This document shows, in pieces, positions 15,365-45,870 of a DNA stretch of 64,000 nucleotides. Both the position numbers and the translations under genes were made by a program. The number at the start of each line of letters is the position of its first letter. The first letter of the stretch is position 1. This stretch comes from a phage. Below the pieces are notes generated by a model. It did not search any database and was not told where the DNA came from. It saw only the letters and a list, made by a program, of their open reading frames with translations. The stretch is taken from sequence record PZ534512.1; one strand, 5' to 3'.

Positions 15365-16021
15365 TTATTTAGCCCTTCCTAATATTCTGGCCGCCTGAGC
15401 ACATATTGATTCAAGGCGGTCATTACTTATATGATCATTTCTATACCAGTACATGGTTATCGTTCCAGCATAGATATTATCCAAATTAAAATATGGACAA
15501 CTGTACATGTAGTTTATTTCGGGAGTAGGCTTTTTAGTTGGTAAAAAAGCAAATTTTGAGTCAGAATAATAATGACGTCCATTTAAATGAACTGCATATT
15601 CATCCATAGTTTTATCAACAGGATATCCTCCAAGTGATTTTTCAGTTATTGTTGAAGGTAATCTTCCTTCGTATGCTATAATATCAACAAAATAGTTTAA
15701 GTTTTTAGGGCGGAAAGAATACACCGCACTAAAGTCTGCCTCAGATGATATATGAACTATCTGGAGTTGTTCCAGGGCGACAGATTCAAAGCGTGCATTT
15801 CTTTCCTTTTCAATAATTTCACTATATGTTTCATACTTTGATTGCTTATAGTACTCAAAGAAACTATCTCCCCTATACCAAACAATCGCCATCATAAATA
15901 AAAGAATTACGACAGCTACCCGGGAAGCAAGAACTTTCCCGGTAGCGTTATCTTTGAACAAGCGATCTAGAACACCAAATAGAATATCAGAGGGCGAAAA
16001 TGATATTCTAGGTGCTGCCAT
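15365..16021 (-). CDS. t: holin T
   Basis: 218 aa, MAAPRISFSPSDILFGVLDRLFKDNATGKVLASRVAVVILLFMMAIVWY (single N-terminal TM, large periplasmic domain). Confidence 0.9.
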   Translation of the reverse strand: MAAPRISFSPSDILFGVLDRLFKDNATGKVLASRVAVVILLFMMAIVWYRGDSFFEYYKQSKYETYSEIIEKERNARFESVALEQLQIVHISSEADFSAVYSFRPKNLNYFVDIIAYEGRLPSTITEKSLGGYPVDKTMDEYAVHLNGRHYYSDSKFAFLPTKKPTPEINYMYSCPYFNLDNIYAGTITMYWYRNDHISNDRLESICAQAARILGRAK

Positions 16022-16041: not shown

Positions 16042-16593
16042 TTATACGTAATGCTTGAATAAACGCTTATACCAAGGTTTCCGTTCTTTTTCAGGCCATG
16101 AAGGGAATTCACCACCTAAATGCTCATGCTTTTCTAAAAGAGCAAAGAACCGCTTAAGGTTTTTATAATAAAATTTTTCCTTTTTATTGGCGACAGAAGC
16201 TTCAATCATATTATTTAAAACTTGGAACTCTTTATATAATTCTTCAATTTTTCTATTACGAATTAAAACTCGCTTATATGTTTCGTCTTCTTTCCAACCG
16301 TCATCAGTCCATATATCAAATTCGCCAGGCTCATCAAAAGTTATACCAACCGGGCTTCCAATTTCACTTATAAAAATTTCTTCTTTATTAAAAGTCCATG
16401 CTCGTTTTCCGCGATGGTCTTCTTCATAAATCCAATCCTGAGTACGTTCATCAAATACAACTGCATATCCTTCTTTAGGTTCTAAAGGTTTTTTAATTGT
16501 TGAATGAGCAGGAAGACCGAGGCCTTTAACCGGTTTGTAATTTTCTTCTTTGTAAAATTCTTTAGTGTCAAAATAATAATGATATATTTTCAT
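16042..16593 (-). CDS. 38: long-tail-fibre assembly chaperone gp38 (T4-type)
   Basis: 183 aa, MKIYHYYFDTKEFYKEENYKP... as recalled for T4 gp38. Confidence 0.85.
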   Translation of the reverse strand: MKIYHYYFDTKEFYKEENYKPVKGLGLPAHSTIKKPLEPKEGYAVVFDERTQDWIYEEDHRGKRAWTFNKEEIFISEIGSPVGITFDEPGEFDIWTDDGWKEDETYKRVLIRNRKIEELYKEFQVLNNMIEASVANKKEKFYYKNLKRFFALLEKHEHLGGEFPSWPEKERKPWYKRLFKHYV

Positions 16594-16600
16594 ATTTAGA

Positions 16601-16618
16601 AGGGGCCGAAGCCCCTCT
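16601..16618 (-). terminator. GGGGCUUCGGCCCC hairpin between genes 37 and 38
   Basis: aggggccgaagcccct. Confidence 0.4.
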
Positions 16619-16620
16619 CC

Positions 16621-19600
16621 TTATGCTAAACGAACGATATAGTTAAAAGCAATGTTTTTAACCGTGTTTTCTGTATTACCTGTACTATTTACAGTGATAG
16701 TATGACCATGCGAGCCAATTGCTACCGTGTGGGTATGAGCACCGATACCTACAGTATGGGTATGAGCACCAATACCTACTGTGTGAGCATGGTTACCTGT
16801 AGTGCTTGTAGTACCAGACCAAGTATGAGTATGAGCACCGTCTGAAGAAGTTTTGGCTATATTCGACCCTGCAGTAGCACCGTTCACGGTTCCAGTGAAT
16901 TTAGCGTTGGCGTTTGCACCTACACTATTATATCCGTCATAGAATATGTTATTGGGTATGCCGGCTTGTATCTGAGGACCTGAGCGCGCATGTTGGTGTG
17001 CACCAGCAGAACTCGTAGTACCGCTTACAGTATGAGAGTGGTTACCTGTGGTATTGCTAGTCTTAGTGCCATAGTCAAAGCTACTTGTCGTCTTAGTACC
17101 ATAATCAAAACTCGACGTAGTTTTAGTACCCAAGTCAGTACTTGAAGCCGATGCACTATGGCTATGAGCCTTAACACCATCGGCTTCTGCGCTTAATACA
17201 GCTCGACCACTTGGTTTACCTTTAATAGTTTGCCCGCGCATATCTGGAATTACGCCAGATGGGTAAGCCATAGCCAATTTTGGGTATGCAGACTTATCAA
17301 AAGTCTGGCCTTCCATAATAGCGTAACCGTCAGGAGGAGTATCCGTTGGCCATGGAATAGGAGCACCGATTGGGTAACTCGATACAATATCGGTTTTAAG
17401 TGATTCAATTGTACTGTTTAAATTAGCAAAATTGCCAGAACCACCTGTAATATTGCCGTCTGTACCTAAATAAACTGAACCACCAGCAGAAACACGCTTA
17501 GGAGATATAAAATCACCATTTTTGTTAAATTCCCAACCTAAATCCTTTATAATAGCGCCAGTCGAACCGCCATCGCCGCCTTCATGATAATGAACTCTGA
17601 AGTTACCGCCGTTAATTAGAGTTCCCAGAGAATAACAACTGTAAATTTTTGTTAAATTCCCAACCTAAATCCTTTATAATAGCGCCAGTCGAACCGCCAT
17701 CGCCGCCTTCATGATAATGAACTCTGAAGTTACCGCCGTTAATTAGAGTTCCCAGAGAATAACAACTGTTTCCTTGGACATATCGTTGTTTCAAAATAGG
17801 AACGTAAGTACTTGTATCTGTACGATTAATATTCATATAGAATGGAGCACGAACGTTTTCATTATTTTGTGAAGCAAAAGACCCTGCACCAGCCGGGCGA
17901 ACTGTGTCAGTACATTCAGCATCAATATAAGCTGCTTGTCCTACCTGCATACGGTAATTAGGAGAAATGCGACTATTACTAGTAACAACAACAAGTTTGG
18001 TATCGTTGTCCACAGTAATCATATTACCGCCAGCGCCATCATCGCCTAACGTAACAGAATGGCGCATTTGTACCATACCATTATTAAGACTAATACTAAG
18101 TGGGCGGAGATTACTTATTCCACCACTTTCACCGGCATCTTTAGGAGTCGGGATAATATGTAATGCTGTTTCTGAGCGACGGAAAATAGCACCGTATTCG
18201 GCATTCCAAATTCTTAATGCATCAGCAGTTCCACCAATTTTTACTTGTCCAGTAATAGAAGAACCACCTTGGACAAACAAACCATTAGACATGGTAACAT
18301 TACCGACTAAAGTGCTTAATCCATTAACTTTAAAACTTCCGTCAGTAATAATACTTCCTCTAGCATTAACTTGTCCATTGAACTGGGTTACAACAGGCCC
18401 AGTAGTTTCAGAGCCACTTGGAGCCACACGCTGTGAATAAAAATAATATCCTTGTCCATCAGCTACTTCAAAAACCGTTTCACGATTACGATCGCCAGAT
18501 GCGTTAAATGAATTACCCCATGCTTTAACAGTTACATAGCTTTTATTCTGACCAGCACGAGTACCGCCTTCCCACAAAATTTGCTTAGTGCCATCAATTG
18601 TAGTAGTTGGAGCGAATGTTAGCCCAGCAGTAGAATTATTAGCTGCTAAATATATGCCATTATATATTGAAAGCTGCTTAACAGATGTAATACCGCCATC
18701 AGCATAAAACATTACATTATTAGAGCCAGTTACCAATTTCAAAATACCCGGGTTAACTTCCATGCCTTCTTGAGTATTAATATTAGTTTTGCCTTTACCA
18801 CGGAAATAGTGGTTCATTTTTCCGCCTGAGTTATAGCCAATATGCGTCTGGCCGTCTCCAGCAGTGTTTTCATCAGCTTGTGTTTGAACCGATAAAAACG
18901 CGGCGTTGGTTCCAGGCATAATCCATGTTGTACCTTGGTCCTCGGAACGACCAAAAATCGCTTTACGGGTACTACGGAAACTATCAGGAGTAATAGATGC
19001 TAAAGAAAGACCACTAGCAACTAAATCATATACTCCAGTTTTTTTGTATGATAAGCCTGTTGATGCATCACCGATAACTATATAACATTCGCCCATTGCT
19101 CCAGCGGAGCCGTAGTTATTAATGTTTTCATCTGTTGTAATTGTACCAATTGCGAGTGAGCGTCGTAATACTAAAGCCCCATCATTACGAAGACCCATTT
19201 GTTTATTAACGGCTGTATTACCAGTCCACCAAGAAAGTTCATCACTTTTTCCGGTTTGCGCAGAAGCTAATTCATGATAAATTGTACCGCCTGATTTAGC
19301 TCGAACTTTACGAAGATAGTTTATACCATTTTCTTCGCCTGTTCCAGGATAAACATATTGAACTAATGATTGCGAATCGTATTGTCCAAATGCTTTTGTA
19401 TCTAAAATAATATTTTTAGTATTAATCTGAGGCGAAGTAATATTTCCAATAGCTGCAATATTTCCAGATGTAGTTATACTACCTCCTGATACTGCTAAAC
19501 CTCCACCGTCAACAGTAAATCCGCCGTCACGTCGAAACGTCCAATATTTCGAATCGCCAGATTCATTGATATAATGAATCTTCAACGAACCTTCAGAAAC

Positions 19601-20023
19601 TAAAGTACCTAATGAAAAAGTTCCATCTTTAAAGCGCTGTTTAATTATAGGATTATATTCAGATGTGGAAGTAGCTGAGCTTAAATCTACAAAAATTGGA
19701 GCTTTCGCAGTATGTTGACCGGACCAAGCCCCACTTCCAGTAGTACGATAATTAAACTCAATATATCCACCGCTTGCTACAATTTGCGGACCAATTAAAT
19801 TAAATTTTCCAGTCTGTGTATAATCACCAGTTTGAGTGATATTACCACTGATATTACCGCCAGTAGAAATGCTTAAATCGATGATATTTCCTGAATCATC
19901 TTTAGTAAAAATTGTTCTATCTTTTAAGTTTATAGCCAATTCACCTTCGGCTAATACTGAAGCAGCAGGACGTGCACCTGCGGTTTTGCTTCTTTTAAAT
20001 TGTATTTGTTTTAAAGTAGCCAT
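16621..20023 (-). pseudogene. 37: long tail fibre distal subunit gp37, reading frame interrupted by a 127-bp tandem duplication
   Basis: N-terminal 803-aa ORF (17612-20023) stops 10 codons into the second repeat copy; C-terminal part continues in the +1 frame to 16621 with His-box tip ...[39 protein letters not shown]; removing one copy gives one 1091-aa ORF. Confidence 0.85.
17518..17771. repeat. direct tandem duplication, 2 x 127 bp (125 bp identical plus 2-nt junction)
   Basis: 17518-17642 is identical to 17645-17769. Confidence 0.95.
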
Positions 20024-45828: not shown

Positions 45829-45870
45829 AAATAAAATGAGGGGCTTCGGCCCCTTACTGAGGAAAATATT

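Follow-up and report, generated by a model that had tools for sequence, protein, structure and literature searches.

The window analysed here, a 64,000-nucleotide stretch of phage DNA (sequence record PZ534512.1), carries two kinds of short tandem repeat at the distal end of its long-tail-fibre gene 37: a His-free decapeptide (the FDY unit) and a nonapeptide, GIGAHTHTV, with a His-x-His (HxH) box. The evidence as a whole is best explained if the two kinds of repeat make up opposite strands of a single, recurring stem module, a reading to which we assign a probability of about 0.8. The decapeptide, on the way down the stem, would form one half of the module, and the nonapeptide, on the way back and level with the decapeptide, would supply the HxH pair. 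The stem encoded in the window would then have one paired module more than that of phage T4, which would add an eighth metal site and lengthen the stem by some 9–10 residues per strand, or roughly 3 nm. Receptor choice would reside in a longer and different tip insert, not in the repeats.

Gene 37 of this T4-like phage (genus Tequatrovirus) occupies positions 16621–20023 on the minus strand. The wild-type frame of its C-terminal part spans 16621–17664 (minus strand), being open from 17664 down to the stop codon at 16621–16623. The portion coding for collar, stem and tip (16621–17499, minus strand) gives a 292-aa translation, which matches PDB entry 2XGF (T4 gp37 785–1026) with an E-value of 4.5e-96, query residues 15–292 aligning with residues 2–242 of the chain. 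The core of the collar domain (PF07484) is recognized ahead of the stem at residues 45–92 of this translation (17224–17367, minus strand; E = 4.9e-12, 46.1 bits, cut-off 24). A match to the 14-residue repeat PF03335 (Phage_fiber) follows at residues 149–162 (E = 3.2e-7, 30.3 bits, cut-off 20), and its best stretch overlaps the HxH-x2-SG module of the descending strand. The first start codon in the frame of the tip is an internal ATG at 17316, which opens a 231-aa ORF (16621–17316); this ORF is the tail of gene 37 and not a separate gene.

The order of genes is g36-g37-g38-t. Gene 38 (16042–16593, minus strand, 183 codons) is annotated as a T4-type tail-fibre assembly chaperone, and its product is identical to T4 gp38 at 181 of 183 residues (99%); the holin gene t (15365–16021) lies downstream of it. 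A chaperone of the gp38 type is required for folding of the gp37 tip. Gene order and the match to 2XGF bear out the original prediction, made from the DNA letters, that this region is the distal receptor-binding end of gp37. These similarities identify the region as coding for the C-terminal "needle", the receptor-binding end of a long-tail-fibre protein of the T4 type.

Both peptide strings named in the original prediction are present, on the minus strand, and the needle can be laid out from collar to C-terminus as follows. His box 1 (AHSHS, 17158–17166), equivalent to H883/H885 of T4, begins the descending stem strand. Next come the two FDY units (17071–17130), the putative descending half of a 10/9-residue stem module, at 17130–17101 and 17100–17071. 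They are followed by a partial copy, GTKT (17070–17059), within a degenerate third ten-residue unit (17041–17070) that leads into His box 2. The repeat had earlier been placed at 17062–17120; the repeat itself is there, with the limits of the full units shifted to those given above. A descending 14-residue module containing His box 2, together with His box 3 (HQH), fills 16990–17040, and the 52-residue tip or head insert (ARSGPQ...KTSSDGA), presumably the receptor-contact region, covers 16834–16989. The ascending strand starts with a second 14-residue module, containing His box 4, and His box 5 (HAH) at 16783–16833. It continues at 16696–16776 with the putative ascending half of the 10/9-residue module: GIGAHTHTV at 16776–16750 and 16749–16723 (His boxes 6 and 7) and AIGSHGHTI at 16722–16696 (His box 8). 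All of these features are encoded on the minus strand. The last 292 codons thus hold eight HxH motifs, three descending and five ascending. In the teqhad record (MN895434), a repeat_region is annotated over the His-box array, at the equivalent of window positions 16722–16784.

Both arrays are detected by Tandem Repeats Finder, with a period of 30 nt at 17058–17130 (score 83) and of 27 nt at 16715–16785 (score 100). At the protein level, a stretch in which every residue recurs one period away reaches 14 residues, compared to a maximum of 6 in 2000 protein shuffles. The two FDY units are identical as protein but have diverged silently at 8 of 30 nt, a TCG/AGT switch of serine codons among them, in agreement with the earlier description of units that are identical in protein and diverged at synonymous positions. 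The GIGAHTHTV pair is likewise identical as protein and differs silently at 3 of 27 nt. When sets of 8 substitutions were simulated in the FDY unit, none of 200,000 was fully silent. Of the sets of 3 simulated in the His-box unit, 2,962 of 200,000 (about 1.5%) were fully silent, making the silent-only divergence of the nonapeptides the weaker evidence. Each FDY unit of the window also lies 5/30 nt away from the single unit of T4. These distances, together with the 8 silent differences, show that the FDY duplication is old and that both copies have been under purifying selection. More generally, the tip repeats are old, in frame, under purifying selection and common to hundreds of homologues.

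Collar, stem and tip follow one another in the same order in T4 gp37 (PDB 2XGF, 785–1026; Bartual et al. 2010) and in the window. T4 has seven HxH motifs, at 883, 915 and 929 on the descending strand and at 966, 980, 989 and 998 on the ascending strand, compared to eight in the window. All seven align with an HxH of the window, and the eighth falls within an inserted nonapeptide. In the T4 needle, the seven motifs hold seven iron ions (PMC6957217; PMC11705849), and the conservation of all seven upholds the earlier view of the His boxes as metal-coordinating motifs of a T4-type tip. T4 has one FDY unit (895–904) and the window two, with a 10-residue alignment gap that corresponds exactly to the second decapeptide. 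Similarly, T4 has one GIGAHTHTV (985–993) and the window two, with a 9-residue gap that corresponds exactly to the second copy. The same 10- and 9-residue gaps appear when full-length gp37 of phage KMB22 is aligned with that of T4. It had been suggested that repeat number might differ from T4, with alignment as the check; the alignment gives one FDY unit more and one His box more, for two FDY units versus one and four closely spaced His boxes versus three. The tip segment differs as well, with 34 residues in T4 (932–965) and 52 in the window insert, which is 18 residues longer and unrelated in sequence.

Evidence that the two repeats belong together comes from their co-variation in 186 distinct homologous stems, collected in three independent searches and drawn mostly from E. 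coli and Shigella prophage side tail fibres that share the gp37 tip. Stems were parsed with the first HxH gap excluded when locating the tip, and the number of FDY units is that implied by the gap between HxH 1 and HxH 2. A gap of 32, corresponding to one FDY unit, is accompanied by two nine-residue His-box steps in 98 stems; a gap of 41 or 42 (two units) by three steps in 82 stems; and a gap of 52 (three units) by four steps in 5 stems. The sole exception, L004 (IMGVR_UViG_3300030021_000020), has a gap of 42, two FDY units and two steps. Hence, in 185 of 186 stems, a descending strand with k FDY units is matched by an ascending strand with k + 1 nine-residue steps, and the window, with two units and three steps, conforms. 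For the 14-residue HxH-x2-SG modules, the descending and ascending counts agree in every one of the 186 stems (0/0 in 80, 1/1 in 105 and 2/2 in 1). More than one module state occurs in 10 of 58 clusters of tip sequence, and the pairing is kept in all except L004. One caveat here is that the homologues are related, and swapping of tips among a few ancestral stems could yield part of the apparent independence. A single crossover between alleles of unequal module number would mismatch the strands, yet mismatches are almost absent, and we therefore infer selection for matched strands. The FDY and His-box repeats are probably not independent of each other. Where the original prediction saw two separate repeats, the co-variation makes two strands of a single structural module the most likely arrangement.

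This arrangement fits the known fold of the fibre tip. In the T4 gp37 trimer, each chain emerges from the collar, descends along a thin stem to a small tip and turns back up; on the trimer axis, the HxH motifs of the three chains come together and bind a column of metal ions, iron in the case of T4. The T4 stem comprises residues 882–931 and 960–1009, 50 in each direction, with published contacts between G921 and F970 and between H929 and G964 (PMC6957217). From these two contacts, we computed that stem residues at the same level have numbers that sum to about 1891–1893. This sum places the FDY unit (895–904) opposite residues 987–996. Judged from the domain limits and the two contacts, a His-free descending stretch of T4 faces a His-rich ascending one, and it is on the same grounds that the two unit types would be physically paired. 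Modelling of the 292-residue C-terminus as a monomer with AlphaFold2, based on an alignment of 34 sequences, gave a low-quality model (mean pLDDT 49.8, pTM 0.19). A search for sequence matches in the PDB found no solved structure of an eight-box form of gp37.

A broader rule can be put forward tentatively, with the odds against it: gp37-type needles could be assembled from paired modules that can be counted and come in two kinds, with selection keeping their strands matched. The first kind, just as tentatively, might be the 10/9-residue FDY/His-box module, holding a single metal site, and the second a 14/14-residue module represented on both strands. If this is true, needle length is a discrete and evolvable trait, ranging from 5 to 10 metal layers among the surveyed homologues, and it might tune the reach of the tip through the LPS layer. 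Phage records with a match number 723; box number was surveyed in representatives at 50% identity. Eight-box stems are common: among representatives of at least 900 aa, 5 have seven boxes, 4 have eight and 2 have six. For engineering of gp37-type tips, the practical advice is to change FDY units and His boxes jointly, whether adding or removing, since natural sequences hardly ever have either kind on its own. In the accessible literature, a scope outside which the original structure paper lies, we found no statement of the paired-module rule, and it may already be known.

The gene is interrupted, however, between shaft and tip. A perfect 125-nt tandem duplication (17518–17642 and 17645–17769) with an AA filler at 17643–17644 occupies 17518–17769. 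It had been described as a 127-bp duplication; the net gain is indeed 127 nt, in the form of a perfect 125-nt copy plus the filler dinucleotide. Instead of one uninterrupted frame joining shaft and tip, there is a frameshift caused by the insertion at 17643–17769. The N-terminal ORF (17612–20023, minus strand, 803 codons), which aligns to gp37 residues 1–793 of KMB22 and T4, reads ten codons out of frame within the second copy and then stops. In relatives, gene 37 is intact, with 1091 codons, and the closest listed relatives span 3276 nt versus 3403 in the window. The insertion is absent from all 30 listed public relatives, which align in two or three pieces. Unless the insertion is an artefact, the tip would not be translated as part of gp37 in this window. 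Production of a functional fibre by this genome hinges on this frame-breaking insertion, a matter that precedes any inference about host range.

If the insertion is real, gp37 comprises 803 residues only, leaving the repeats unexpressed in a dead gene end. The early stop is what this explanation predicts, there is no start in the tip frame before the ATG at 17316, which lies inside the collar domain, and no recorded protein has exactly the 231-aa sequence. We nonetheless regard a dead gene end as rather unlikely. With the insertion removed, direct comparison with g37 of KMB22 finds a single base different, at 19594; the rest of the gene is thus one base from a working allele and shows no decay. 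Amber mutants of T4 gene 37 are lethal, and a phage without the C-terminus of gp37 could neither fold nor use its long fibres, nor propagate alone. For T4, folding of the gp37 tip has been found to depend on gp38 (PMC6957217). Given an undecayed gene and a defect that could not be propagated, a true defect is no more likely than an artefact of assembly or sequencing, or a minority variant. We also considered a recurrent split of gene 37, as two database proteins of 231 aa (P0003 and P0004) share the start of the window ORF. This was ruled out, since P0003 lies within an intact gene 37 of 1080 codons (OQ031495.1) and represents a gene-calling quirk.

Proximity of the insertion to the repeats, with the first FDY unit 388 nt downstream of a perfect 125-nt duplication, lends some appeal to the original view that the whole distal half is duplication-prone, in which case slippage or unequal recombination in an active segment would yield host-range variants. 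The number of FDY units does vary from 1 to 3 among homologues, only 3 of 27 nt distinguish the GIGAHTHTV units, and duplications in the adhesin region of gene 37 are reported for host-range mutants of T4 (Tetart et al. 1996, J Mol Biol 258:726). But the FDY units are 8/30 nt apart, with a serine codon switch that spans three bases, and repeat-sized length changes are absent from gene 37 of the 14 closest genomes (99.4–100% identical), 12 of which have a gene of 3276 nt and two a gene 18 nt shorter. Unpaired changes, at 1 in 186, argue against tolerated free slippage, and the 125+2-nt event, which breaks the frame, is missing from relatives and contains a filler dinucleotide, points to a different process. 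These data make a duplication-prone tip highly improbable. Old and widespread, the tip repeats keep the frame, whereas the 125+2-nt copy is perfect, frame-breaking and absent from the listed relatives; the two are unrelated in age and kind.

That the extra module alters host range or receptor specificity, for instance through a longer needle that reaches OmpC across thicker LPS, also seems improbable, if somewhat less so. Module number varies within 10 of the 58 tip-sequence clusters, as would be expected of an evolvable trait, and in one published docking model of T4, head and needle both touch OmpC (PMC5221442). However, the receptor contacts of T4, and mutations that alter its use of OmpC or LPS, map to the tip or head at 932–959 and not to the stem (PMC6957217, PMC5221442), and it is in the stem that the repeats lie. 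Moreover, phage FelixPlatter (Bas40), with the same gp37 allele as the window, depends on OmpC (PMC8594841); T4, with one module fewer, has OmpC as its primary receptor too. This result runs counter to the earlier proposal that repeat number alters host range. And because the entire tip insert is different from that of T4 as well, a host-range difference could not be assigned to the repeats.

The gp37 allele of the window is not new: GenBank records of more than a dozen phages already include it. vB-Eco-KMB22 (OR539217) and FelixPlatter/Bas40 (MZ501065) have the same allele over 3276 nt (listed identity 100.0%) without the 125+2-nt insertion. Their gp37 is annotated as a long tail fibre distal subunit with an adhesin domain, and the KMB22 tip is identical to that of the window. 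Among the matches listed, about 12 further Tequatrovirus genomes are at least 99.4% identical in gene 37. Across the 25 kb around the gene, the window is only 97.8% identical to FelixPlatter. The window allele itself matters little, being an already sequenced allele from a family with a solved structure and one carrier with a mapped receptor; what this analysis adds is the paired-module rule.

Several known systems share parts of this architecture. In T2/T6-type fibres, a separate gp38 adhesin of about 260 aa carries glycine-rich motifs (PMC3157838). Such an arrangement can be ruled out for the window, as the gene downstream of gene 37 encodes a 183-aa chaperone of the T4 type; with 99% identity to T4 gp38, it indicates the T4 arrangement, in which the adhesin is fused to gp37. 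The gp38 chaperone gene adjoins gene 37 in both T4 and the window, and the last 42 residues of gp37 are identical between the two, compared to 63% identity over the whole protein. C-termini of prophage side tail fibres from E. coli and Shigella have the same collar, FDY units and His boxes (56–88% identity), the same 11-residue C-terminal motif and the same pairing rule as the window, but their N-terminal shafts are shorter and unrelated, their tip inserts are different, and they carry 5 to 10 HxH motifs. Finally, host-range mutants of T4 reportedly carry duplications in the adhesin domain of gp37, bounded by His boxes; these are said to have arisen in the laboratory under selection on a new host. 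The mutants resemble the window in that repeat number changes in the C-terminal part of gp37. They differ in that their duplications are fresh, whereas the units of the window are old, diverged at silent positions and common to many natural alleles.

The pairing of k FDY units (the His-free decapeptide of the descending stem strand) with k+1 nine-residue His-box steps on the ascending strand was broken in 1 of the 186 distinct homologous stems. This stem, from the nucleotide record IMGVR_UViG_3300030021_000020 (L004, 1501–2331), carries two FDY units and only one GIGAHTHTV unit, and no length change elsewhere in it makes up for the difference. It represents either a tolerated mismatch or a metagenome-assembly error. 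Longer needles are predicted for some homologues. In database proteins P0181, P0195, P0198, P0211 and P0234, the first gap is 52 residues, which implies three FDY units, and the nine-residue steps number four. Another homologue, P0041, contains ten HxH motifs, with two 14-residue modules on each strand. Across the surveyed homologues, needle length accordingly spans 5 to 10 predicted metal layers.

Upstream of the tip, the frame of gene 37 is broken by a perfect 125-nt tandem copy with a 2-nt filler (17518–17769), referred to as the 127-bp duplication. This duplication is missing in all public relatives among the matches listed (30/30). The filler, an AA dinucleotide at 17643–17644, is unlike the product expected from simple slippage or homologous unequal exchange. 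Two database proteins, P0003 and P0004, are each 231 aa long and share their start, an internal ATG, with the window ORF, and we considered whether gene 37 is recurrently split. This idea was rejected, as P0003 (OQ031495.1; L084, 4001–4696) is part of an uninterrupted gene 37 of 1080 codons, and hence is a gene-calling artefact.

With the insertion taken out, gene 37 of the window differs from that of Escherichia phage vB-Eco-KMB22 (OR539217) by only one base substitution, at position 19594 (C in the window versus T in KMB22). Identity to the gene of FelixPlatter (Bas40; MZ501065) is listed as 100.0%, while around gene 37 the window (1–25000) is only 97.8% identical to the same genome. No record of the phage collection matched the window better than MZ501065. 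The gp37 allele is common to genomes that are otherwise diverged.

The stop codon of gene 37 is separated from the start codon of gene 38 by 27 nt, and this spacer contains a C(UUCG)G tetraloop hairpin, GGGGCTTCGGCCCC (16602–16615, minus strand). A second, identical copy lies 29 kb away on the opposite strand (45840–45853, plus strand), and no match to this sequence was obtained among shuffles of the window. The 41-nt fold at the hairpin has a predicted energy of −15.6 kcal/mol (z = −2.5). Hairpins of the C(UUCG)G type are known from intercistronic regions of T4.
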